Sequence record: NC_041937.1
Source: Escherichia phage V18
Length of the DNA: 64,000 bases
Reading direction: 5' to 3' (one strand)
The translations under genes were made by a program, and so were the position numbers. Positions 5,851-64,000 of this stretch are shown piece by piece; within the stretch, counting starts at the first letter, position 1; the number at the start of each line of letters is the position of its first letter. Below the pieces are notes generated by a model. The model saw only the letters and a list, made by a program, of their open reading frames with translations, ran no database searches and was not told the DNA's origin.

Positions 5851-6678
5851 TTGGAGGCACTTTGAGCAAGAAAGAGTCCAACGACAAATACTACACAAAC
5901 CCTGAGTATGCAGAATATCTTGTTGGTAAAGTAAAAGATAAGTATGGGAATTGTGCATACGTTGAGCCTTCTGCTGGAAGGGGTTCTTTTTCAAAACTAT
6001 TTTCAGAGATACTGTCGTACGATTTAGTACCAGATCCTGAATTTGAAGGACCAACACCGTGCATTCAGGCAAACTTCTTGGAGGTGCATCCCAAGGCAGA
6101 TGTCTTCATAGGTAACCCACCATTTGGCAAGAATTCATCCTTAGCTTGCAAATTCTTTAACCATTGTGCATCATTGCTAGAGCTTGGAGGGGCTATAGCC
6201 TTCATCTTGCCACGGACATTTGAAAAAATTTTTTTCAAACAAACTGGACATGTCGATGCACCTTGTCTACAGCGAAAGGTGCCCTAAGAATTCGTTTTTA
6301 CTTAATGGCAAACCTTATGACGTGCCATGTGTTTTCCAAATTTGGGAGAAAAAGGCGTGCAATAGGGATCCTGTAGAGATTGGAGAGAATAAGTTATTTT
6401 CTTTTAGCACACCAGATGACTACGACTTCTGTGTAAGACGTGTTGGGTATAATGCTGGAAAAGTATTGGGGGATGATGACCCAAAATCTGAAGAATCAAC
6501 ATATTTCATAAAATCTTTAGTTAACGGTGTTGACAGAGTGTTTGCTGAATGCTATTCTTCTTTTCAAGAAGAAGCAGGTAAGACTGCTGGAATGAAGAGT
6601 ATAGGTAAGAAAGAACTACAATACATTTTGGAGACCAGGTATGATCAAAAGCATAGACTTGACCAAAGAACTTACTGA
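5832..6678 (+). CDS. N6-adenine DNA methyltransferase, frame interrupted near 6220-6290
   Basis: AdoMet motif EPSAGRGSF and catalytic IGNPPFGKN in ORF 5832..6287; continuation (…CVFQIWEKK) in ORF 6220..6678 in another frame; break in an A6T7 homopolymer stretch. Start codon uncertain. Confidence 0.5.
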
Positions 6679-17567: not shown

Positions 17568-18355
17568 ATGGGTCGAGCTAAAGAAACAAAACGCATGCGT
17601 GATGAAGCTAGAGAGGCTCGCAAATCTGATCGCCTGCGTAAGGCTGCTGAGAAATTTGCTGACGAACGAGAGCACACTGCTCCAGCTCTCCGACCAATGA
17701 ATAAGAAGCAGCAAAAGTATCTTGATTACCTAGGGTCGCGTAAAATTATCATTGTAAACGGAGTGTTTGGGTCTGGTAAAACATTCATGGCATCTGCTAT
17801 GCAGGTGACCTTCTGCGTAAGAATGAAATTGATAAGATCATTGTTGCACGTCCTTACGTTCAGACAGGAAAGACTTCAGGATTTAAACCTGGAAATGCAA
17901 TGCAGAAACTGTGGCCCTATCTTCGAAGCATGATGGACACGATTTGTCGTCGTGTTGGCAAAGGTGCTTTTGCCGCAATGCTGGGAGACGGTCAGAACAG
18001 CCGTATCGAGATTTGTGAAGTTGAAAGCATTCGTGGTCGTAGTTTCGATGAGCGATGCTTTGTCCTGATTGACGAGGCACAGCAAACTAACCCTGAAGAA
18101 ATGTTGTCAATTATCACAAGGATCTCTGATCAAGCCACCCTTGTAATTATGGGTGATAATAGCCAACGTGACATCCCTGGTAAATCTGGCCTTGCATGGG
18201 TGACGGATTTCTTTACTCGTCATCCAGATCCTGAGGTTGGAATGATCAGCTTTGATAGTCCAGACGATGTCGTTCGTTCTGGGTTGGGTCGTCAGATCGC
18301 ACTCAATCTTATTGAGGATCGTGCAAATCATATTTGGACCCCTGTTTCCGAGTAA
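17568..18355 (+). CDS. phoH: PhoH-like ATPase, frame interrupted near 17795-17815
   Basis: Walker A GVFGSGKTFMAS in ORF 17568..17933; the PhoH-like continuation (…KIIVARPYVQTGKTSGF…LIDEAQQT…VIMGD) is in the next frame and joins ORF 17900..18355. Confidence 0.65.
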
Positions 18356-23574: not shown

Positions 23575-23945
23575 ATTATGAAACTTTTTGAGTGGTTTAA
23601 AAAGTTTAAATATAAAGCTGTAGCCATCGTGCCGTGGTCAATTCAGTGGGTTGATGAAGGTGGTCTACCAATACCTGGTGACAAAGATACTGGGTACTGG
23701 ATTATGATGGAGAACGGGTTTGGAAAGCGAAAGTATACGTGCACAAACTCTACTCGATCTGCCACTAACTGGTCTAAATTCTACTGGGGAGCCAACGAGT
23801 GGGGAAGATACGCCACCAAATCAATGGCACTTATTGGTATAGCAGAGTACATTGCAGCCAGAGATAGGGTTGGAGACACTTATTACTATACTGCGGACGA
23901 TATTCGTAACAGTGTTTACGTCCCACAACCACCTGATGGAGACCG

Positions 23946-25945: not shown

Positions 25946-26276
25946 TCCTGCTTGGATTAGCATACTTCCTCGATAAGGAAGATTTGTAATTATTTGTGGG
26001 AAAGGAATCCCAATCTCTTACCAGAGGTGATACTATATGATTGTTTATTTTAAAACTTCAGGTGGATACCCTGATTCTCAAAGCTTGATCGGAAAAACGT
26101 GCACAGCATACTCACCTCTTGATGAGGAGGTAAGCGATATTCTACGAAATATGTATCGGATTGACCCCCAAGAAGCTTTGATCAAAACCTTGTATTTGTC
26201 AAGGGCTCAGATATGAAGTCTTTGGGAGCATTCCCTGAAGCAGATGATGATGCCGTTTATTCGTTCATGACTCCTT

Positions 26277-26636
26277 TTGAAGCTATGGTTGTTGGGTGAT
26301 AATATGAAAGTACGCTTTATTGGTGAAACAATTCCTGTGCATCTCCGGTCTCCTGAGGATTCTGCAGATCTTGCATCTCAAAAGGCGAGAGGTTATGATA
26401 AGAAAGTAACCTCAACCGATGTAGTGCTTGAGGCTACTAGCTACCTGACCCTGCTGCATTCTTTAATCATTATGGGTACTATTTCAGCAACCTGATGAAT
26501 ATCGGTGAGCTTGTATTTATTAGTGGTGGAGAAATTGTTAGCAAGCTCGGTGGCGATCCAGATGTCTTTCATGAAACCTGTCCTTTTGCATTTGTGGTAG
26601 GTTCAGATGTGGAAGTTATTGAGGAGGTGCGGTAAT
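26277..26636 (+). CDS. family A paralog, apparently frame-disrupted
   Basis: N-terminus MKVRFIGE… in ORF 26277..26495; C-terminal half LVFISGGEIVSKLGGDPDVF…VVGSDVEVIEE in a small ORF 26496..26636 in another frame; mirrors 24163..24417. Confidence 0.35.
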
Positions 26637-33790: not shown

Positions 33791-34945
33791 GGTGTTTTTA
33801 CCTCTTAGTTAATTTTCTTACAACTTCCCTTCAAAAAAGAATATAGCAAAACTGCCGATCCCTGTCAACCAAGGATGGCATAATTTTTATGTGATCAAGG
33901 GGCTTTATTGCCCCTGACCATGTAACTTGTTGTATTATTTGTTATTCATCCAGTTTTCCCAAGCTGCCTGATAATCTGCCTCACTGCGGCGGATCTCTTC
34001 TTGCTCTTCAAGCCGGATCTCTTCTTCCAGGTACCCCAAGATATCGGCTTTTTTGGTCTGGCGTAACATCCAATCATCTTTTTTACGGGTAAAGATCTTA
34101 TATGCTTTCTCGCAAACCTCTTTTTTGCTACCTTTTTGGACTTTAAGAACTTTGTAGGCCATGTACTGAACTAGTTTGAGCTGATCAAGACGTTTCATGA
34201 TGTTTACCTCTTTATGAGGTTCTGGTTTGGTGTGGGCCTTTTGGCCCGTGTCATTATCTTATTACTTACGGCGGCAAAATTCAAGTGTTTTTAATTGATA
34301 ATCTTCCTCAGCTTGGAGTACAACCGCTCGATCATTTCGTTGGCATTGGTGAAGCCATACCCTTGAGCGAACTCATCCGCGCCACCTTCGTGATCATGTT
34401 CTGCGTTCATCGCTTCCACAAAATGGAATTCAAGATTATTGAGGTAAGGGCTTGATGTTCCGTCCTCTTTTTCGATGAGATCCCAGATAGCATTAAAACG
34501 TGATTCAACTTCTTGATTAATCCAGCTTGACATAATGTTTTCCTCTCTTCTGGTTGTTGTGTGGGCACTTTTGCCCCTTCAAGATAAATAATATCCCACC
34601 ACCTGGCAGATGTCAACGGTTTTTATAGTTTTTATATAACAGGCACCCCCGGTGATTGTCTCCCCCCGTCGCCAGGTGCCACCCGTGAAACAAGTATAAC
34701 AAAAAACAGGACAAAAACAAGCCCTGTTTTGTAGATATAAGGATTATATTTTTTCGCCTATGTAGTCCGGCCTATTCTTTTCGGTCATACGCTTAAGCAT
34801 TTTTTGCAAAGAGTTAATATATAACACCAGATCGCTGACTACCAGGACAACATTAATCAGCACATACCTAACCATAAAGGGAAAGATCGCCAACATTGCC
34901 GCCACGATCCCCATGGTAATAATTACCTTTCTCATGGTTAGCGGT

Positions 34946-38315: not shown

Positions 38316-39043
38316 TAAGGCGGCAAATATGCCGCCTGTTACCTGATTAAAAATTATCGCCGTAAAGCTTTCCGCTTTCTGCCCATACCACCACGCGAGG
38401 CATACTATCCCACACGTCTTGTTTTAGATTAACGCGTGCAATTCTTCGGTGGTGCTCATACCGGGCACGGGCTGATTGTATACTGCAAAACGACCGCCTG
38501 CATAATCATAGGCCAGGGTTAAATCACACTGGATCATCTTTTTGATCATGGCATTAAGCATGGCGTTAGCCGCATATTGATCACGTTTTAAAGGCAACTC
38601 TTTGATTAGTTTGCGATAGTTTTCGATATGGTCGCACACTGTTTCACGAGGAAGATCTTTCATATCCTCGCGAAAGGTAACCAGGTTAAACATAACGGTG
38701 TCAATAGCTTTGGTAGTGTTTTTCATGATGTTATCCTCTTTGTTTTGTGTGGGGCAAATCATCGCCCCCTTGAGTTTTAATATAGCAGGTTTTTAGGTTA
38801 TTGCAACACTTTATTTATGAAAAAGTCATCTCACCATATTCATCGACATCAAACCGCCAATCATTGGCCTCGATAAGGCCGATCAGGTTTTCTGCGGTGA
38901 ACTGTTCTAGATAGGCCTCCTCCAGGTCTACGTAAACCTTGCGGGATAGCTCCCGTACCGTCTCGGTGATCAGTTCTTCCAGTCTTCCACTTTGTTTTCT
39001 TGTTTGGCGGTCAGATCTAGCCAAGTGGTATCAATGTACCCGC

Positions 39044-39436
39044 TTACAGTGTTTTCATGGCTGTAATGGCTGTACTTGTCGCGTTCAACACTGGCTGATA
39101 ACTCGCATCGTGCATTGTGCCGAACAAGTGACGAATTGATCGGAACTTGGTCAGGGCCCTTACTTTACGCAAAAATTTTTCTAAATCCACGTTTTCAGCA
39201 CTGATTGAAGCGCCGTCACCCTGGCACCAAAAGCCGGACCAATGTACTTCGGTATCTTCAAGGCCGTACTCTGGAAAGATATATTCTTTGTAGTGTTCAA
39301 TTACACTTTCTGCAAAAAAGTCATCCCCGCTGCGTTCTTCTCTTTCGCGGACCATTTCAATGGCTTTTTCTTTTTGTTCGTCGGTCAGCACGTCGAAAGA
39401 TAAATTGCAACCTGTAGTAATGTTAACGGTAGTCAT
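39044..39436 (-). CDS. hypothetical protein
   Basis: 130 aa; conserved 5'-leader hairpin CGGGAAGTTTTCCCG at 39466-39480 and promoter-like TTGACA-N16-TATACT (minus) at about 39493-39522. Confidence 0.4.
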   Translation of the reverse strand: MTTVNITTGCNLSFDVLTDEQKEKAIEMVREREERSGDDFFAESVIEHYKEYIFPEYGLEDTEVHWSGFWCQGDGASISAENVDLEKFLRKVRALTKFRSIRHLFGTMHDASYQPVLNATSTAITAMKTL

Positions 39437-40625
39437 GATGTTTTCTCCTATTTTCTTTGTTAGTGGCGGGAAGTTTTCCCGTTTACGTGTTTAAGTATAC
39501 TTATCAAGATTTACTTGTCAACACTATTTTTTAAATTATTGTGGCGCAAAATGTTTAAAATCTCCTCAACGTCATCAACACGGCGGCAATTTTTAAACGC
39601 TACCAATTGCCCCATGATTTTAATCACTGGGCGGCCTTGCCAGTGCCCCTGGAGAAAGCGCGCCTTGACTTTATCGGTGGAACTATCACGCCACCAAATA
39701 GCCTTGTTGTTGCAGTAGTAAAAATTATTCAGGACAACATCAACTTTATCAAAATTTTTTAATTTACGCATGGCGTTTACTCCTTTCTCTCTTTGATGTG
39801 GTTAGTATAGCTAACCTGTTGACGATGTCAAGGTTAAATAAAAAACTGTCAATGATATTTTTAACGCCATAAAACGGCCCTAAGCGATGTTTTCAGGTTA
39901 AAGGGGGGGCGATTGCATAGGTGGGGCCTTTTTGGCGCTTACAGGGCCAACCAGGGGCGCTATTCGTAGGATAGAAATAAAAAGCCCCGCACAATGGCGG
40001 GGCGTTGGTTGTTATTTGTCTTTATGGCGGTATCGTTCTGCCTGTCGTTCACGTTCCAAAAGTAGGCCGGGCAATTTACGATCATAATGATTGCGCCAGA
40101 TCTTCCCAAACCTTTTTGGCTTATTCAGTTTATTGTTACGCTGGCGGCGTTCTGGCAGCTCTTCGGAATCATGAGGGCGCTTTACAATTTTCTCGAAATT
40201 AATTTTCATATATTCCCCCCTTGCTAACTTCAATATTGGCCTGAATAGCCGATACGGCGCTTTATAACTTCCTGATCTGTGTGGTCATATCCCCAAAAGT
40301 CTACGATTTTTGCGCCTCCAGCCTTTAGGCGGTATAGTGTTTCTTGCATCTTGTAAGCTGGGATCGGTCGCGGTGTTACCTGGTCGCCTCTCTCATCCTT
40401 GTACTTGATAATGTAGTCTTCGTTGTCGTTGAATGCCCAAAATGGGTATTCTGTGAGCGCGTTGCTATCTTTTTCGTTTTTAGATTGGATCTTGTTTACA
40501 ATTAAAGCCGTAGCAATAGCGCCAATGATAAAACTAGCCCCGCTAATCATGTACTTTCTCCTTTCATGGTGTTAATAAATTATCTTTATAGATGGCCCTG
40601 CAACCAGGACCACCGAAAAAACAGC

Positions 40626-40912: not shown

Positions 40913-40962
40913 AGTTTACTTTATTGATGGCCCTGGTGTCAAGGCCATCTAAAAATAAGCTT
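40913..40962 (-). promoter_or_regulatory. repeated promoter/operator-like element, copy 2
   Basis: Near-identical 50 bp to 41533-41582; GATGGCC/GGCCATC inverted repeat bracketing a TTGACA on the minus strand. Confidence 0.4.
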
Positions 40963-41301
40963 ACTCGTTTTCTTCCAGCTCCGCAAGCTCTTCTTTTGCT
41001 TCTTCCAACCCTGTCTGTAATTCCTGGTATTCTTCATCGTCCTCAATATCCAGCTGTCGATGTAGTCGCTAAATCCGCAGCGGTAAGCGATAGGATCTAG
41101 CTCCTTGAGGATACGCGACGGAAGAAAAGAAATGTTTCCGATCATAATTTCGCCGTAGATCTCGTCTAACCATTCATCATAGTTTTCGTCGTACTTGTCC
41201 TCGTCGATTTCAAAGTTATCGATCTTATTCTCAAGGTCTGCGATCTGTTTTTTCAGCGCGGCGATCTGCATGGCTTTTTCTGCGGCGGTCATAGTAGTCA
41301 T
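40939..41301 (-). CDS. hypothetical coiled-coil/acidic protein (C-terminal part possibly out of frame)
   Basis: 120 aa; N-terminal KKQIADLENKIDNFEIDEDKYDENYDEW; leader hairpin GGGAAGTTTTCCCG at 41328-41341. Confidence 0.35.
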   Translation of the reverse strand: MTTMTAAEKAMQIAALKKQIADLENKIDNFEIDEDKYDENYDEWLDEIYGEIMIGNISFLPSRILKELDPIAYRCGFSDYIDSWILRTMKNTRNYRQGWKKQKKSLRSWKKTSKLIFRWP

Positions 41302-41380
41302 GGTGTTTTTCTCCTTTTGTGTGTTCTGGGAAGTTTTCCCGTTTATGTGCTTATTATAGCGATTTAAGTTAGCTTGTCAA

Positions 41381-41532: not shown

Positions 41533-41582
41533 AGTTTACTTTATTGATGGCCCTGGTGTCAAGGCCATCTAAAAATAAGCTT
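41533..41582 (-). promoter_or_regulatory. repeated promoter/operator-like element, copy 3
   Basis: Inverted repeat GATGGCC 41546-41552 / GGCCATC 41563-41569; upstream of the 41381..41500 peptide ORF. Confidence 0.4.
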
Positions 41583-42024
41583 AGTAAATTTTCAGTACTT
41601 TACCGTCCAACCTGTCAAGCTGGATCTCGATAGCTGCAGAAAACCTATTGTACACCACGTCGCCCATAGAATCCAACCAGTCTATGACGTTATACACTTG
41701 CTCTTTGTTCTTGCAGGTCCGGATCCGTTTCATGATGTAAGCCGGATCAATATTGGTACTCTCGTTGGGGCCTTTACCACCACCTGGAATGGCTTTAAGG
41801 TGCCTTTTGCGTTCATCTCACGCGCTTTTGCGGCGCGGTTGTTATATGTTACACAACGGCGGCAAATGTTGATCAAATGCATGTCAATAATTTTTTCATC
41901 GTTTGCCAACTCGTTCATGATGCGGCGTACGTTCTTATTCATGATCTTTTTCCTTTGTGCTGGCGGGAAACATTCCCGCCTTTTGTGTCTAGTTTACTTA
42001 AATTTTGCAGCGTGTCAATGATTT

Positions 42025-43900: not shown

Positions 43901-45798
43901 ATTTTAGAAATCCCCCTTACACTTGATATGCCAGGAATTTTCAAGTATCAGCTGTTTTTGTTTTTAGGTTTGTACATGCGCAGAGGTATGGTCGTAACAG
44001 TCCATCTCCCCAGCCCTTCCCAGTTCCAGTTGTAGGCATGGTACCCGGTTATGCATGCACTGCTAGAGTGGTCATAGGCATAAGAGAACGCTATACGCAC
44101 CAAATGGAACCAGTCTTTCCACGGTTGTGGTCCGTAAGCTTTTCTCCAACACCGACACAAACTAAATGTCTCAAGAATAGGCAGGATAACAAATCCATAC
44201 ACCGCCACCAGAATAGCCAGCGCAATGATTGTCAGGAATACATACCCTGCAGTTGAAACGATGATCTCTGTCATTTGTCGTCCCCTTTCTTACGGATATA
44301 GATGTGAGAGCCTGCCTGTATATAAATTTCTCGACCATCTTCTGCAAAGATATGAAATACACGATCACCTTCATACTCGATACGTGATATCTTCATAATG
44401 GTCTTTCCACCTGGGATGCGGATCTCGTCCCCCACAGCGATGTTCCATGCAGATTTAAGCTTAAACATCTGCACCCTCCTTTGGGAGCTCTAACTCTGGC
44501 ATAGCCATATACGCCACAACAGGGTTGTAATCAAAGTAGAAATGACCGTTAATTATCCCAGTTTTGTGAGCATAGTCACCAGATCCTGCAAGAACAACCT
44601 CGCAAACTCCGAAATCCACCTTGCCATTCTCATCTGCCATGGCTACAATATACTTTCCTAGAGGCATGTTTTTAACGCCGTCTACAAATGTCCACCCTTT
44701 GTTCATACTTTATCTCCTGCATTCTCTTAAGGTAACCAGTAAACAATCTCGCCTTTCAGCTTCATGTCGTTTCCAACATAAATTTGCCAGCCATCCATCT
44801 TAGCAGCTGCAGGCCCAAAGTCATCCGCACCCCTTACCTCTTTCCAGGTCCCGTAGTCAGGTTGCCAGATGTAAAATCCACCATCTTTATCCCATGCTCC
44901 GTACACTACGTTTAACAGGTTTCCCATTGCAACAATGGTGGGCCGTGGGAATAATACATCTACAGATGCGCCACAATTTCTGGTATCTTTTAAGTTGCAA
45001 TCCCAAAAGATGTCTGCCAGTGTGGCGGCGATAGCTTTACGTCTTTCCAATGTTACCATATCATACTCACTTTGTTAATAAGTTCTAAAACTTTCTGTCT
45101 TACTTTGTCAAGGTCTGTGGATTCAAAAACTGTACGGTATCCCCAACTTTGCCCATAGGAGTGACTGCAATCCCCGTAGCACCATTGCTCAATTTGATAG
45201 TATTCAAGGAACGGGTGCTGTCTAACTATGATACCATCTCGGTTAAAAATTACCATAATACATCGCTCTCTGTTAGTTTATGCGTATATTATACACTGCA
45301 GTCTTCAGATGTCAACCTCTTACAGATTGCTCCAGTACAATCGGCATTTACATTTTGGGCAATGAGGTTCTTTTATGTAATAACCGTCAGTCTTTGGAAC
45401 ACTTTTTGGTGCAGTTTTAAGATTGTACCTGGTAAAACATCGGAAGCAGGTTACCTCTCCCACCTGTTGATCGTTGATCCACTCACCAGAGTAAAGTTCT
45501 TTCTTGTTTCTCATAATTCTCTCCCAAATCATCTGCAATCTTATACCAAAATCTCCAGCCAGAAAGCACACGGGAACACTTTGAGGATTGAATCTTTACT
45601 TGGCTCGGAAGTTCTTTTCCGTATGGTAGGTAGAAATACCCTCCTGCAGATTCGAATATAGCTCCTTCGGTTGTATCTACCACAGCAAGAATTAAGATTT
45701 TAGTCTCCACAGTGCTCTCCTCTCTTAGTTGTTGTGGAAACTATATCACCTCAGAAGATGGTCGTCAACACTTTTAACCTTTCATGATTGAAAAGTAT

Positions 45799-46107
45799 TC
45801 AGCATTGGGTCCTGGGTAGAACTGGGTATACAGCTAGATTGCCATAAGCAGTCTCTTTGTCGGCTGCCAGTGCTTGAGGGAACTCACGGGCAATATCTTT
45901 CGCTATACCTGCACCCATTGTGTGAAAGCAGTTACAACCGTGGATCATGTGGCCTGACCCTTTCTTGAAAATGGAGATTAGATCTCCCTTTACAGTATCA
46001 ATAATCACGGTATGCCAACTCCTCTTCCGCAATTTCAAAAAACTCAGTCCAGCACTGTGGCATATTGGAGTTACCGAAGTGGCTTTCATAGTAAAGGTTC
46101 TCACCAC
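45799..46107 (-). CDS. macro-domain-like fragment (possibly truncated or frame-disrupted)
   Basis: Segment IIDTVKGDLISIFKKGSGHMIHGCNCFHTMGAGIAKDIAREFP resembles the N-terminal ADP-ribose-binding core of macro domains; ORF is too short for a full domain and overlaps 45998..46423. Confidence 0.3.
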   Translation of the reverse strand: MVRTFTMKATSVTPICHSAGLSFLKLRKRSWHTVIIDTVKGDLISIFKKGSGHMIHGCNCFHTMGAGIAKDIAREFPQALAADKETAYGNLAVYPVLPRTQC

Positions 46108-47221
46108 TTGGAAGGTAGAAATCTGTTACCTCATAGAATCCACAATCGTCGCACTCACCTTCTTCAAACTTGGCCTCAACCTTAATACCGAGGAAGGTAA
46201 AAAGTTTATGGATATCTTCAGTTTCGAACTCCCAGTGAATGTTGTTTTCCGCATCGGTATAGAACTGGATCAGCAGACCATTGTCCAGTTTACCAAAATA
46301 CTCTGTGAAGTAACTTCCTTCCCAGAAATCTTTATGACAAATAATATCCATGCGTTTACCCATAATAATGGTGTGAGCGTTTTGGGCATCGTCACGAATC
46401 AGTTTTGGCATTTCATAGCTCATCTTAGTTCTCCGGGTTCAACAGGTGGTGGCGCTACAGGAAGATCATAAAACATGGCTATCACAGTCTCTTACACAGG
46501 AATTGCTTCAAATAGACCGTTATCTATACCGTCCTTCAGGTAGAGGTTATATTCTATGTCGGTATCTGTATAAAGGGCAGCATCCAGCATTCTATCCGTG
46601 AGTCCATCCATCGGGGGGAGAAACCACCACCCACGCCAGTCAAAGTAACAGCCTGGTGCATCTTCTCTTACACGGATTCGATAAATCATGAGCAGTGGCC
46701 TCCTGTTAGTTATACATCCCAGTTTTCTTCGTTCATCACGTCCTCCCGTTCTATGAAGTTATAATTGCACACCTTTCAACCTGTGTCAACAGAAAACTTC
46801 AACAAATTCTTCCACAGTTTTAATGTCGTGGGAAAAAGGTTTACGGCTATAACGGGCAATAGCACTATCAACCACCGCCCGGTACTCCAAATCTTCAGAA
46901 TATTTCATGAAGCATTGTAGCGTCTCTGGACAGATAGCTAAATAGCTCCACCACCCCTCTTCAGATTGGTAGTCGAATCCCATACTCTCCAACCATGAAG
47001 CATATACGCCTGCACCCTCAAGCCAGTGAGTGTTTTCATCCAGGAACTTGTTAACAGACATGTGGGCTTCCAAGCATTTATCCAACTCTTTTCCGTTAAC
47101 CAGCCACGCACTGACCGTGGCGCATCCAAGGTCTACAGATTGAGTTGACAGGTTGTATTGGTCATAGTTCTCAGGCTTAACAATGATATCTTCTAATGTC
47201 ATTTTTCAGATCTCCTTATAC

Positions 47222-49036: not shown

Positions 49037-50427
49037 TATTTGTCTCCTTGTTCTTCGTTAGTGTTTGCCGTGTGTGCAAACCCTGCCTGAATTAATTTGT
49101 CCTGAACTTGAGCCAACAGGCCCATTGCAAAACTTGTGGTCCCAGAGAGAGCCATCAGCATATCTCGTTGTTGAGCTACCCAACCTAAGGCATAGTCCAA
49201 ACGACGATATTTTTCTTCTTCGCGCAGAGCCTGAAATAATTGTTCAGCCTCCGGTTGTTGTGTGAGCTCCTGAAGTCTTCCCATGAAAGAAGAAAGCACT
49301 AGCAAAAGAGACACTTGATCTTTACTTAACCCTAAGAAAAATTCTTGAGGTTGTTCTTGCTCGTTCATTGCAACCGACGTTTGATCGTTCATTTGTTCCA
49401 TTATGGAATCTCCGATTTTATTTGAACAACATAGAAGGAGACACTATTTTAGCATCCCCTTCTGCAAATTACAATAGGTATTTGTTAGCCAATCACTTCA
49501 AAAGTTCCCCAATTCCCGTCCAGCAGGCAGGTGATCGGATCCCCATCGTCGTCAAAGATTTCAAAGTTTTCAGCATCCAGGATGTGACCCTCGAACACGA
49601 TACTTTCGTCTCCACCACCAGAAATAACAGCGTATTCCTTACCTTGAGTCAAGTTTTGACACCCTTTGCCACCAAAACCTACTTCAACACAACGTACTTT
49701 CTGTCCTGCGCGAGCAACTGCTTCAGTCATCTTAAGGTCTCCTGATATTAATCGTCAAGTTCAAAATAGATTTTAACAGCTTCATCAAAGATTGGAATCC
49801 CGATGTTGTTGATAAGCTGCCAAACTACCATATCTTTACCTGGATCTGGGAGAATGTCAACCTTTCTCCATGCGCTGTATACCCAGTTCGGACCGCCTTC
49901 TGCACTAACTGGCAGATTTTCACCAGCTTCTTGTAGATACTTATACAGCAAAAGATATTCTGGATACTCTAGAACACTGTCCTCTGTAGTATATAGCAGT
50001 TCACGGTATACTTTTAAGAACCCTGCTGGGGTAATGTTTTCAGTCTTCATTTGCCGCTTCTCCTGCATTCATCAGGTCTGCCATAGCGTCACCCACGAAG
50101 AGGACAACCACATCGTTGACAGCGTCAGCATCATCTTTGTTGACGTTGCTGAATTTAGGACACACAGCAATGATCATATAGACACCGTTACCAACCTGAA
50201 CTGTCCGTGTGGTGCACATCATGGCGGTATTTGTGCCTTCTTTGAAGGCGAAGCTTGAAGACGCTCCTCTAAAGTGTTACCGGTAGATTTCAGAAGCGCC
50301 AGCTCGTCCAAGGCATAGATGATATCTCCGGAAGTTAGTGTTGCCTTGCCATCAGACACCATAATCACTCCATCAGCACCGTCAAGCTTAGAGGCTTCAA
50401 AGATATCAATATCCCAAATATTTTTCA

Positions 50428-50760
50428 TTACGCTTCCTCGTCGTCTAAGTAATCATCAAGAGAGGTGAAGATTTCACCGAAGTATTCTAAGATTTCTAGC
50501 TCACGTGTGGTGCAGCAAACATAATCTCCTTGGTCGTCCTTAATAGTGGCCTCTTTACCCAGAACATCTACTTCAAATTCATCGTTCAGCAGGACGGCCC
50601 CTGTGTAAACTTTGTCAGCTGTGCAGTCCCGAAAAGCAGAGTCCTTTTCCAGATAGTCTGGCTTAACCTTGGCTTTAATTCGTTGATATTGTTTGGTCAT
50701 TGCTGTGGTCTCCTTTCGTTTTGATAGGGCCATTATATTAGGCCCCATCACTGTTGTCAA
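50428..50760 (-). CDS. small acidic protein, tandem paralog 1
   Basis: 110 aa; KPDYLEKDSAFRDCTADKVYTGA… vs KPECVANDRAFKDCTVGAIYEA… in 50764..51018. Confidence 0.4.
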   Translation of the reverse strand: MTTVMGPNIMALSKRKETTAMTKQYQRIKAKVKPDYLEKDSAFRDCTADKVYTGAVLLNDEFEVDVLGKEATIKDDQGDYVCCTTRELEILEYFGEIFTSLDDYLDDEEA

Positions 50761-55061: not shown

Positions 55062-57055
55062 TTAAAAAGGCGTTTCATCATCCTCAAAACCAGGGACCGG
55101 GTCAGAGGATGGATCATCGTACTGGAGGTCTTCCTGCGTGTCAACAGGCTTAACAGTAGGAGTTACAACCTTATCAGCCACAACCTTGCCCATAGGTGTT
55201 TCTACAACTGCATGCTCCTGATCCTCAAACATAGCCTGAGGTCTCCAAACAACCTCCCCGCCTTCTCCGTCTGTAAACATTTGCATTTCTTTGTCCCAGT
55301 ACCAATTACTGGCATCATGGAACTTACCTGTGTGCGGGTCCATAACCAAAGTGTCAGCAATACCTAGAGTTTTTGCTGGACGGTTTTTAAGACCTACCAG
55401 ACGGACACGTCCACGAGAACGATCCACCATTTCTTCGGCCTCGACACCTATGACTACCCAACTCAACTGTTCAAGCCCAGCCGATCCTCGCAAATTCTCT
55501 TTTCGCACAGGATACCAGAAAGGTAACGGGTTACCATCCTTGTCCTTAGGAGGCACAATCTCTGTACGTTTGAGGTGAGCGATCACCAAGATAAACACAT
55601 TAAACTGCTTACAAAACGCAGCCAGTTGGGTCATAGCCATGTCCAGTTCTTTTCGCTCATCCTTAACATTAAGCCCTGAAATTACCATGGACAGGTGATC
55701 CAGCACAATATAACGACAATGGTACAGGCAAACCATTTGCTTAAGCTTGGTAATCAACTCGTCCACCGGAATAGACCCGAAATGTTTGAACACTTTGATT
55801 TTTCCAGCTTTTGCCCATGATTGGTGAATCTCTGCGTGTTCTTGATCAGTTAAAAACTGGCTAGGATCTTCAACAAACTCTTTAACATCAAACCCTAACT
55901 GGTTTGCATACAAGGAGTTAATTGCTTCCTCTGGGTCCTCCTCAAGATGGATCATGCATAGACGATCATCCTCTTCATAGTCATCAGCCTTCGGGCATGT
56001 CGGGTCCATTAGGTATCTTGCAATACAGTGTTCCAGTTTTTTAGCCACGGTTGTTTTACCGCCCCCTGATGGCCCTGTAAGCATTACGAGTGTCCCTTTG
56101 TGCAAGCCTTTTAGCATTTTTTGCAGTTTTGGGAACTCTGCGCTGATATCTACCCCGTTGGAAGTCTTTTTCCGCAAAGACTCGATAGAGAAGTCTTCTA
56201 AATCCGACACAGCATCAGGCACATATTTAACAGGATGCCGGAACATGTTGACAATATCTTCCAGCTTTTTAGCCTTCAGCATGTCACGGATATCTTTTAC
56301 ACCGTCAGGATCGTTTACCTCACCGGGGTATTCTACGTGGTAAACGTTATCAGCCATCAAAAATGCTGCAATATTGTGCGTGGCCTCGACACCTTTAATG
56401 ACGTGTTTTTGCTTCTCTACCTCGTTAGCTGCATCGTTATCCATTGCCAGCACAACTGTTCCATAGCTACGGATAAACTTCTCATTGTTTGCAAAAGTAT
56501 CTACTGCGTTTGCACATCCACAGTTAATTCCAACAAAAGGTAGGCAAGGTTTTCCTGCCAGATCACCACCGTTGATAACTGCGTCGATCCCGTCCTGGAC
56601 CTCTTTAGCCCACTGCTTCACCTTTGCCGGGGCTTTAGCGTTGGTGAGAATCCCTTTTACTTGTATCTGATATGCAGCCTGCCATGCTGCAATAACATCA
56701 CCTTCTCCCTCACAAACGTTAATCTGCTTACGGTTGTTGGAAGATGCACACAGCTTTTGACCAAACATCTGGGAGTTGGCCTTTACTATGCTACTACAGA
56801 CCAGTGCCCTTTCTGCTCTTTCGGCTTAGACCAGTCACGCTTTTTGAAACCAGACAGATTTCCGTAGCGGTCGTAATATGGGAAATATGTTGCAGTGACT
56901 GTCACACCGTCTTCTTGGGACAATGCTGATCGCACACCAAAATATTGTGCAGCCATCAGACCGATATTTTGTTGTGGGACAGGGACAATTTTAGTATTTT
57001 CTAAAACAGTCTCTACAGTTTCAACCTCTTTTTCATCACGATAGTCTCGTTTCAT
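55062..57055 (-). CDS. primase-helicase (TOPRIM primase domain + DnaB-family helicase), N-terminal part in a different frame
   Basis: ORF 55062..56768: TOPRIM EGEGD and LAMDNDAAN; Walker A LTGPSGGGKTT; Walker B-like FILVIAHL. A separate 89-aa ORF 56786..57055 immediately upstream ends 18 nt before it in another frame; I did not identify a primase motif in it, so the join is positional. Confidence 0.65.
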
Positions 57056-57128
57056 ACTACCCCCACTTTTGTATCTTGTTGCAACTGGGTTAGGTTCTCC
57101 ATAGCGGCTATATGCAGAGGATATAAAC

Positions 57129-57914
57129 TTATTCCCCTCTCCTTACTACAGGCTCGTTTGCTAAGAATACAGCTTTTGCCCAGCCACGTGGTGTGAGGCT
57201 TCGAATCATCTTCGTTCTTGCACTCTTTCCACCAAGCTTGGCGTGTTGCATGGAATACCCGCTAACCACGTCAACTATTTGCGGGACAGGTTTTGTGTCC
57301 GGGATTATAAATCCATTACCTATCCAGCCGCAAGTTATTTTTGGATAGGCATCACGTGGAGCTATAAATTCAGGAAACCATGGGTTTACATCATCCTCAG
57401 GTAAATACCCGCCATAGTCAGAAGGATGAAAACGGTAATCAGGTTTGCGCCACAGTGTGGACATAACACCAACAGGATTCTCTACATGCCACGGGCAATC
57501 GTAAATCTCTCCCAGCTCTTCCGCAACCCGAGCATCCTTTACAGCATTAATTTGGATCATGGGGTCCTTAGCCAGCTTTTTCTTAAAATGTGCAGCACCC
57601 GATACCGCTAAATGCGTGCACGGAGGAAATGCAAGAATAAAGTCTGGAGCTGGATACATGCAAAAAGTTTCCTGAGGGAACCACGGGTCAATCCAATAGT
57701 CAACATAGTGAATGTTGGGATGATCGGTTATCACCTCTGCATAACTGCCGTGATCAGCACCTTCTGCGTTAAAGCACAGGCACAGATATCCAGCTTTTGC
57801 CCAGTCAATGACTGCACCACCAGACCCGTCAAATAGACTCCACACAACACCTTTGTGGTAGTGTTCTTTGTAGATAAATTTCAATTTGCTGTCTCCTAAT
57901 GCAAAAAGCCCCAC
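57129..57914 (-). CDS. C5-cytosine DNA methyltransferase-like protein
   Basis: 261 aa; LFDGSGG (motif I F.G.GG), FPPCTH (motif IV PC), HVENPVG (motif VI ENV); shorter than typical Dcm-type enzymes. Confidence 0.35.
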   Translation of the reverse strand: MGLFALGDSKLKFIYKEHYHKGVVWSLFDGSGGAVIDWAKAGYLCLCFNAEGADHGSYAEVITDHPNIHYVDYWIDPWFPQETFCMYPAPDFILAFPPCTHLAVSGAAHFKKKLAKDPMIQINAVKDARVAEELGEIYDCPWHVENPVGVMSTLWRKPDYRFHPSDYGGYLPEDDVNPWFPEFIAPRDAYPKITCGWIGNGFIIPDTKPVPQIVDVVSGYSMQHAKLGGKSARTKMIRSLTPRGWAKAVFLANEPVVRRGE

Positions 57915-62240: not shown

Positions 62241-63481
62241 TACGCCTCCTCGTAAAGAATGTCGATAGTGTTACCGTCACGATCAACTACATATTCAATA
62301 GGGTCTCCATCTTTGCGTGCTTCCGGAGCTACCACAATCTCATAGCGGCATGCACGGCACTTAGCGCTATTGTGTTGGTATGGCACACTAACCACATCTG
62401 CAGGGTCAACCATAACAGTCATTACAGTGCCGTAGCTCTTTGCATACTCTTTGCTGGCGCAGTGTAGGCCATAGGAGCACGCAGCTTCAGGATCATCCTC
62501 TACAAAGTTACGAGGCATGGATACAAAAGCACCTTGGTATTGTGGGACTTTACCACTGTGCCAATCCACCCACTTGCTGCCGTTAAACTGAACCCCTTTG
62601 TAGCAAATGATTCGACCATCTTCTGCAATCTGGATATCGTTGGCCTGCATAAAGTCGTAGAGCATGTTTACAGATTTTGCAGAAGGATTGCGTAGCAGGC
62701 GAACGAGGAATTTCACATAGCGGTCATCTAGTGTTCCGTCTGCATAATCTTTCTCAATTTTCTTTGCAATGGTGGATCGCATCTCTACACCGTAGTAGTA
62801 GAGCTTACCATCTTTCATAATCAGGTTGTCTGCAAGTGTGGTGAACTCATTCTTGCGTTCCAGCCAGACAAGGATTTCACCAATTGCCTCATCATATTCC
62901 TGAACAGAGATATGGTCGAAGACTTTCTGGTAAACTTCCTCACTTTCGCTGCGGCGAATTTCAAAAATGCCTTCGTTGCAGGTGATCTGGAGAAGTTCCC
63001 CGCAAATAACTACCAAAGGCTCGATGCTTCGAGTCTGTTGCTGAGACACACTGCTCACCACCTCCAGCACCGGATCTTTGACTTCTACTAAAGGTTCTTC
63101 TGACTTGATTGCTACTCCAGTTAACCCCACACCGTGAACAACACACAGTGGGTATACCACGCCCCAACGTTTAACGGAACCTTCGCCTAAATCTAAGATC
63201 ATGGCGTACTTACCGTTATCTTCCAGACCGTATCGAAATAAACGGGCCTCTTCGCGGGTTTCAAAATCCTCACGGGTGTAGCAGACGCTGTCACGGTCAG
63301 GATCGAACAACTCTGGGGCACCCACTGCCAGTGTCCAGGTTGTGTCGCCTTTCTCAATAGCACATGTGAAACCCTTCTTCTCAAGTTCTGCACGGCGGTC
63401 GCGTGCTTCTTTACGAGTTTTGAAGTGTTCGTAGATGAAAATCATAACTGTCTCCTTATTTGGTGTTATTCTTTGTATCAA
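62240..63481 (-). CDS. hypothetical 413-aa protein
   Basis: Long ORF, start overlaps the helicase stop; no motif I can assign with confidence. Confidence 0.45.
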   Translation of the reverse strand: MIQRITPNKETVMIFIYEHFKTRKEARDRRAELEKKGFTCAIEKGDTTWTLAVGAPELFDPDRDSVCYTREDFETREEARLFRYGLEDNGKYAMILDLGEGSVKRWGVVYPLCVVHGVGLTGVAIKSEEPLVEVKDPVLEVVSSVSQQQTRSIEPLVVICGELLQITCNEGIFEIRRSESEEVYQKVFDHISVQEYDEAIGEILVWLERKNEFTTLADNLIMKDGKLYYYGVEMRSTIAKKIEKDYADGTLDDRYVKFLVRLLRNPSAKSVNMLYDFMQANDIQIAEDGRIICYKGVQFNGSKWVDWHSGKVPQYQGAFVSMPRNFVEDDPEAACSYGLHCASKEYAKSYGTVMTVMVDPADVVSVPYQHNSAKCRACRYEIVVAPEARKDGDPIEYVVDRDGNTIDILYEEA

Positions 63482-63531
63482 TCAGCTCACGGTATTCAAT
63501 CATAGCAGGGGTGTCCCAATATTTCAAGCGA

Positions 63532-64000
63532 AAGCTAGATAAAAATGTACAATTGAGAGCATTTTTTTCGATGATTTCACACTCAGAAGGTACTGACAGG
63601 TATGGTGGCGAAGATGCTTCGTACCACATCCTTGTTGGTGGAAAATACATAGAGGATCTCAGCAGGCATCCCGGTATTTATGTCAAATTAAGACCGGGCC
63701 TTACCTCTTCAGCATTTGGCAGATACCAAATTCTGGAGAAATACGCTAAGCATTACATGAAGCAGCTTGGCTTAAGAGATTTTGGTCCGGCAAGTCAAGA
63801 TGCCATAGCAAAACAGTTGATCCGCGAATGTAAAGCCCTTGATGACATTTATGAAGGAAGGATCCGTTCAGCTATCTATAAATGCCGTAGCCGTTGGGCA
63901 AGTTTCCCACCACCACCGGGGGCTGGTAAACTGTATGATCAGCGTGTAGAAAACATAGAGAAGATGCTGGACGTCTTCCGAAAAGCCGGAGGCACAAGAC
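63532..64000 (+). CDS. second copy of the endolysin coding sequence (partial; runs off window end)
   Basis: 63532-63996 matches 144-608 by eye; lacks the ATG (CGA at 63529-63531); in-frame GTG at 63511 or TTG at 63460 upstream; diverges at 63997-63998. Confidence 0.45.

Follow-up and report, generated by a model that had tools for sequence, protein, structure and literature searches.

A probable remnant of a T4 tk.4/adfM-type macrodomain gene, broken by two deletions, in a 64-kb Vequintavirus-like sequence

Macrodomains of the PF01661 family have an alpha/beta/alpha fold of about 130-190 aa. The known substrates of TARG1/OARD1 (C6orf130), SCO6735 and BT1257 are protein-linked ADP-ribose or O-acetyl-ADP-ribose. 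DarT2 ADP-ribosylates thymidine in single-stranded DNA and blocks replication, and the macrodomain of DarG2 reverses this modification (PMC11825919). In phage T4, transposon screening with a DarTG2 host gave one significant match, the gene tk.4 (bioRxiv 10.1101/2025.11.20.689424). A clean tk.4 knockout sensitised T4 to DarTG2, and the gene was named adfM in the same 2025 preprint (bioRxiv 10.1101/2025.11.20.689424). Its product, Tk.4 or AdfM (anti-DarT factor Macrodomain, NP_049723.1, 155 aa), is a stand-alone macrodomain of about 150 aa. The family is not new: more than 100 related phage genomes have it annotated, and a counter-defence role has been assigned to the T4 member. A literature search joining the name Tk.4 with macro domain gave no matches.

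The window, which is the whole stretch of 64,000 nucleotides analysed here, holds on its minus strand at 45799..46107 a 102-aa ORF with a GTG start that contains GDLISIFKKGSGHMIHGCNCFHTMGAGIAKDIAREFP (six-frame ORF list). The original prediction took this segment for the ADP-ribose-binding N-terminal core of a macrodomain, and the family matches agree with that assignment. The window ORF matched PHROG 335 ('phosphatase', the phage macrodomain family) with an E value of 5.6e-23. In BLASTP, T4 Tk.4 showed 45% identity to the window fragment over 60 aa (Tk.4 residues 1-59, E 5e-20), and bas54_0092 of phage MaxBurger, a 152-aa macrodomain protein, was identical to the window product at 58/58 residues. 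This similarity to macrodomains is far above chance expectation, and matches of the intact family to solved structures, given below, point in the same direction. A search against macro profiles had been proposed as the check. Pfam Macro (PF01661) scored 14.3-15.3 bits on the window product, below the gathering score of 22, and covered positions 1-32 of the 118 positions of the profile; the score is this low because just the N-terminal third of the macrodomain remains. An intact relative scored 25.9 bits, which is above the gathering score. The window product represents what is left of a macrodomain gene; it is not itself a macrodomain, nor a complete member of the Tk.4 family. The feature is very probably the surviving 5' part of the Vequintavirus gene orthologous to T4 tk.4/adfM, non-functional as written. 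The parts of the locus are given below in window coordinates.

45998..46423 (-): upstream 141-aa gene, PHROG 8157 (unknown function; PHROG match E 7e-82)
45765..46008 (-): remnant of the macrodomain gene, 244 of 459 bp, from the GTG start to the site of the original TGA (six-relative alignment)
45799..46008 (-): current reading frame, 69 codons plus TGA, giving 58 native residues and the 11-residue tail AVYPVLPRTQC (translation, BLASTP)
45835..46008 (-): intact N-terminal codons 1-58, with the first ADP-ribose-binding loop HGCNCFHTMGAGIA (alignment)
45833..45834 (-): junction of deletion 1, 65 bp gone (codons 59-80), with a frameshift (alignments)
45776..45833 (-): 58-bp island between the deletions, codons 81-99, which read LYTQFYPGPNAEYFSIMKG in the old frame (alignment, translation)
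45775..45776 (-): junction of deletion 2, 150 bp gone (codons 100-149, including the Gly-rich loop IPKIGCGIGG) (alignments)
45740..45768 (-): sigma-70-like candidate promoter TTGACG-17-TATAGT for the next gene (promoter scan)
45544..45710 (-): 56-aa gene, PHROG 15268, with a 1-bp deletion at 45614 that is specific to the window and shifts the frame

The true start of the gene is the GTG at 46008 and not the one at 46107, and the equivalent GTG is used in every relative. It overlaps the stop of the upstream 141-aa gene (GTGATTATTGA), and a GAGGAG stands 10 nt upstream. The overlap of this stop with the macrodomain GTG is consistent with translational coupling. The first 33 codons of the ORF (46009-46107) run out of frame within the conserved 141-aa gene. 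The 102-aa ORF from the GTG at 46107 was rejected as a real gene because of these out-of-frame codons and because the relatives start at the equivalent of 46008. The overlap with the neighbour that had been noted in the original prediction is real over 11 nt, but its apparent length of 110 nt is an artefact of taking the longest ORF. Phage V18 and several assemblies carry the exact 141-aa protein as well, and the intact 152-aa gene follows wherever the sequence extends far enough.

Both deletions were placed by alignment with slur12, ECO111 5-P, D1, ime, RudolfGeigy and WalterGehring, and the frame was confirmed by translation. The suspicion that the ORF is truncated or frameshifted proved right on both counts, as 65 bp and 150 bp are absent compared with the six relatives and the 65-bp loss shifts the frame. 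Since the damage consists of two deletions of tens of bases and not of an error in one base, routine polishing would not be certain to mend the gene. The window copy retains the first ADP-ribose-binding loop, which is invariant in T4 Tk.4 and the relatives and aligns with NTVNCVGVMGKGIA of the M. tuberculosis DarG macrodomain (5m3i) and with the corresponding loop of SCO6735. The 58-bp island is now out of frame and carries the premature stop at 45799-45801. Beyond deletion 2, the last 11 nt of the macrodomain gene are kept, with the original TGA at 45767-45765. The Gly-rich diphosphate-binding loop and the C-terminal half are absent from the window copy, which is truncated and frameshifted, unlike T4 Tk.4. 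Some 60% of the alpha/beta/alpha fold would be absent from the window peptide, as would one of its pair of ADP-ribose-binding loops. Because this part of the fold and the Gly-rich loop are missing, binding or hydrolysis of ADP-ribose by the window peptide should be impossible. We infer that the gene is dead as written and that a working macrodomain cannot be made from the window copy. DarTG2 resistance should not be predicted from this copy, and the fitting label for annotators is a disrupted tk.4/adfM-type macrodomain gene, not a novel small ORF.

A functional small protein of 69 or 102 aa, either an ADP-ribose-binding mini-domain or a new overlapping gene, was considered for the same stretch. 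With the GTG, the GAGGAG and the overlap with the upstream stop all intact, translation of the peptide would probably continue. However, 58 of the 152 residues are native, the Gly-rich loop and core strands are gone, and the 102-aa ORF gains its 33 additional codons from a conserved gene read out of frame. An exact look-up among about 15 billion proteins found none of the four candidate truncated products tried (102, 96, 69 and 49 aa), nor the downstream ORF in its frameshifted form, and the contigs compared that have an identical upstream protein show the full 152-aa form where they are long enough. A function for the short product is very improbable.

When positions 45000-47000 were compared with the phage collection by megablast, 121 rV5-like records were found, with up to 98% identity. 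For each of the 30 listed among these 121, the matched stretch exceeded the query by about 216-221 bp. The rV5-like (Vequintavirus) matches comprise phages of E. coli, together with some that are mislabelled as 'Campylobacter' phages. Across 25 kb, the window shows about 95% identity to its best relatives, and on these matches it is a distinct, mosaic rV5-like E. coli phage of the genus Vequintavirus that is itself absent from the collection. The macrodomain gene of the relatives has 459 bp, encodes 152 aa and lies at this position. It is labelled 'Macro domain protein' in slur12, 'tk.4: phosphatase' in rV5, and 'Poa1p-like family protein' or 'macro domain-containing protein' elsewhere. The Vequintavirus orthologues (rV5 'Tk.4', slur12, bas54_0092) share with the window the locus, the GTG start that overlaps the 141-aa gene and the promoter that lies downstream. 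They are all 459 bp long, whereas the window is without 65 + 150 bp. Phage navn (MN850642.1, 100168-100794, protein P0011) has its macrodomain gene annotated with just 132 aa from an internal MIHGC, and the locus is 1 bp longer than in the other relatives (627 vs 626 bp). The navn copy may be another N-terminally disrupted gene or reflect an annotation choice.

The bare length difference would also be expected if the window carried the ancestral short form and the relatives carried insertions. However, the sequence that the window lacks has homology to T4 Tk.4 and to solved macrodomains, and it contains invariant positions including K60, L61, G62, P117, I119, G120, G122, I123 and G124. The first gap moreover breaks the reading frame. 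Insertions in the relatives are refuted, as the segments absent from the window are the conserved macrodomain core, and an ancestral short form has next to no chance of being correct. The difference is best described as loss from the window copy.

The intact protein of the relatives is homologous to the T4 protein. It matched PHROG 335 with an E value of 4e-59 and T4 Tk.4 with 39% identity over 153 aa, end to end (E 2e-43). By tblastn, homologues were detected in 2817 phage records, and in T-even phages the matches fall at the tk.4 locus, next to vs and tk.3. T4 Tk.4 and the Vequintavirus proteins have the motifs HGCNCFHTMG-G, NLYTQF-PGPN and P-IG-GIG in common. Both genes stand amid a small-gene cluster, which the original prediction took as early, while the immediate neighbourhood differs, as T4 tk.4 lies between vs and tk.3. 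A profile built from five intact proteins was compared with solved macrodomains and matched them over positions 1-147, nearly from end to end. The matches were to BT1257 (1.9e-12), SCO6735 (9.5e-9), TARG1/OARD1 (about 8e-8), M. tuberculosis DarG (8.5e-8) and T. aquaticus DarG (1.6e-6). The match to 6lfq/6lfu, which serves as the Poa1p-like Appr-1''-pase comparison, was partial (positions 3-97, E 1.6e-7), and it was weaker than the matches to BT1257, SCO6735, TARG1 and DarG, which were full length or nearly so. Judged by these profiles, the intact Vequintavirus protein is predicted to be a stand-alone 152-aa macrodomain of the TARG1/DarG-like kind. The 'phosphatase' annotation appears no better supported than the DarG/TARG1 relationship. 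The Poa1p-like 'phosphatase' label, which stands in many records, would imply a different substrate. TARG1/OARD1, SCO6735 and BT1257 match the phage family over their full length, but they are cellular proteins without phage context.

The sole NCBIfam match of the intact relative was the macrodomain part of antitoxin_DarG (NF048014), over positions 2-144 of 338, with an E value of 4.8e-12 and 45.8 bits against an equivalog cut-off of 250. The window fragment gave no match to NF048014. The macrodomains of DarG (M. tuberculosis 5M3I, T. aquaticus 5M31/5M3E) belong to the same clade as the intact phage protein. Unlike the DarG antitoxin, the phage protein has no C-terminal DarT-binding domain and no adjacent darT. 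No darT was found beside the window locus, where the neighbours are small phage genes without a Pfam match or with Phage_zn_bind_2, and PHROGs of unknown function. The window product is not a DarG antitoxin, because the C-terminal domain and a darT neighbour are absent and the score is far under the cut-off. The chemistry proposed for DarG, which is the removal of ADP-ribose from thymidine in DNA, may by analogy be common to the phage protein. On the other hand, the segment 'PTKK' of M. tuberculosis DarG aligns with 'YTQF' in the phage protein, and a lysine in the DarG segment is catalytic in DarG and TARG1. Chemistry or substrate of the phage protein may therefore differ.

It had been suggested that a phage macrodomain could reverse ADP-ribosylation-based defence, and the T4 homologue tk.4/AdfM is indeed needed for T4 to grow on a DarTG2 host (bioRxiv 10.1101/2025.11.20.689424). 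The anti-DarTG2 activity comes from T4 data in that preprint, and the link to the Vequintavirus protein goes through the 39% identity. By analogy with T4, the most likely role of the intact Vequintavirus protein is to neutralise DarT2 as a DNA de-ADP-ribosylase expressed early. By homology, the protein of the intact relatives would be made early in infection. It would strip the ADP-ribose placed by DarT2 from thymidine of single-stranded phage DNA, and replication could then continue. T4 Tk.4/AdfM is proposed to act likewise. Loss of an adfM-type gene would make the phage sensitive on DarTG2 hosts and would have no cost on hosts without the system. In Bas54/MaxBurger, bas54_0092 had insertions at 31 of 31 TA sites and is dispensable.

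Neither deletion was found in the other sequences searched. Of the phage records covering at least 80% of 45650-46060, 67/67 had matches joined from pieces across both deletions, and among those listed the matched span was 615-627 bp versus 401-411 bp in the window. Of the eight listed contigs with an identical 141-aa protein, six reach far enough and show an intact 152-aa gene; the other two stop within it, at about 100 bp. The contig alignments all break at 45834 and 45775. The exact 19-mer of junction 1 was absent from IMG/VR and JGI metagenomes and had one chance match in GTDB genomes, in Lentiprolixibacter. The exact 22-mer of junction 2 was absent from IMG/VR and the metagenomes. Recombination with a divergent D1/ime allele was rejected as the cause, as both of these phages have a colinear 459-bp gene and the window remnant is of the slur12/FV3 type throughout.

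The quality of the window sequence bears on the origin of the break. When the annotated genes of RudolfGeigy were translated and searched against the window, 15 of 137 conserved genes were split or internally deleted, a count that takes in the macrodomain and primase/helicase genes, compared with 2/56 genes split in a control with two good genomes. Nearly all of the splits are window-specific single-base deletions in short runs (at least two identical bases), as seen against RudolfGeigy and WalterGehring. The primase/helicase gene at 55062-57136 (-), which encodes 692 aa in relatives, has a 1-bp deletion (CC to C) at 56790 and is split into an 89-aa ORF (56786-57055) and a 568-aa ORF (55062-56768). 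Its closest allele, that of EmilHeitz (98.3%), has 643 bases versus 641 in the window, which is consistent with two single-base deletions in the window, at 56790 and 57131. This gene was scored essential in the Vequintavirus Bas54 (9/117 TA sites hit). The further split genes, mostly with deletions of 1-2 bp, include a PhoH-like ATPase, an N6-adenine methyltransferase and a homing endonuclease.

918-1360, 5862-6675, 17568-18352, 26037-26632, 34265-34533, 38350-39436: further split genes (against RudolfGeigy)
40202-40550, 41053-41307, 41584-41942, 45544-45710, 50043-50428: further split genes (against RudolfGeigy)

Larger losses occur as well. A 43-bp deletion near 41770 (421 vs 464 bp) frameshifts a 131-aa gene, and a 209-bp deletion near 23763 (441 vs 650 bp) fuses two small genes, with its junction at an imperfect short repeat. 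Both deletions are absent from the best-matching records listed. A 465-bp exact direct repeat (144-608 and 63532-63996) corresponds to the endolysin coding sequence from codon 2. At the junction 63531|63532, the last 77 bp of rIIA (63455-63531, -) abut the second endolysin copy, and relatives have the full 1983-bp rIIA. This junction was found in no phage record; its origin could lie in chimeric assembly, rearrangement or duplication. These results suggest that the window is an indel-prone assembly. Other findings of 'truncated' or 'overlapping' ORFs in the 64-kb window should be read with the frameshifts, the unique deletions and the chimeric junction in mind. A 51-bp exact direct repeat was also observed in a small-gene region (40913-40963 and 41533-41583, 620 bp apart).

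Because the sequence is error-prone, the break of the macrodomain gene may be absent from the real phage. Both deletions would then be artefacts of assembly or sequencing, and the real phage would have an intact 459-bp gene. The share of split genes against the control, mostly through single-base homopolymer deletions, argues for such an origin, as do the split in a primase/helicase that is essential in Bas54, the chimeric junction at 63531|63532 and the 43- and 209-bp deletions. The macrodomain-gene junctions occur nowhere else in the sequences searched, and the retained codons are 100% identical to the intact orthologue with no sign of decay. However, losses of 65 and 150 bp are unlike the usual consensus errors of the homopolymer type. 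An imperfect 13-nt direct repeat of the relatives, GGTTGATTCCATA / CTAGATTACCATA (+ strand), coincides with junction 1, as replication slippage predicts. In addition, the macrodomain gene is dispensable, and the neighbour's stop codon and the downstream promoter were spared. We give an artefact somewhat less than an even chance.

The same size class of the deletions, the repeat at junction 1, the non-essential nature of the gene and the intact flanking signals are what would be expected if the deletions are real and the lineage recently lost its adfM-type gene, for example while growing on DarTG2-free hosts. The lack of further decay fits a recent event. In contrast, neither junction occurs in any independent sequence, no microhomology was found at junction 2, and two deletions just 58 bp apart, one of them without microhomology, form an odd pattern. 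The general unreliability of the window sequence also speaks against a real event. A genuine loss comes close to, and at most reaches, an even chance. The undecayed codons mean either a very recent event or an artefact, and a real recent deletion allele and an assembly or sequencing artefact are roughly in balance. If the deletions are real, the window copy would be a natural knockout beside intact relatives, with which the macrodomain could be tested against DarTG2 and the cost of the gene could be measured without DarTG2.

The region downstream of the remnant was also compared. A spacer of about 90 bp follows the window ORF, and then comes a series of small ORFs. The candidate promoter at 45740..45768 has 10/12 consensus matches with a TG extension and is a candidate by consensus match. 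Deletion 2 ends 7 nt before it. The original TGA of the macrodomain gene sits within the -35 hexamer (TTGACG), and this arrangement is kept in all six relatives aligned. In the 56-aa gene that follows, the PHROG 15268 match reaches positions 1-33 of 56 alone, and tblastn showed the gene split over two frames; the indel at 45614 is also evident against eight further contigs. Two genes downstream of the remnant, at 45323-45514 (-), lies a 64-aa gene with a match to Pfam Phage_zn_bind_2 (E 1.6e-22). The mechanical ORF at 45320-45571 over-extends this gene at its 5' end, and the 64-aa protein is 100% identical to that of RudolfGeigy.
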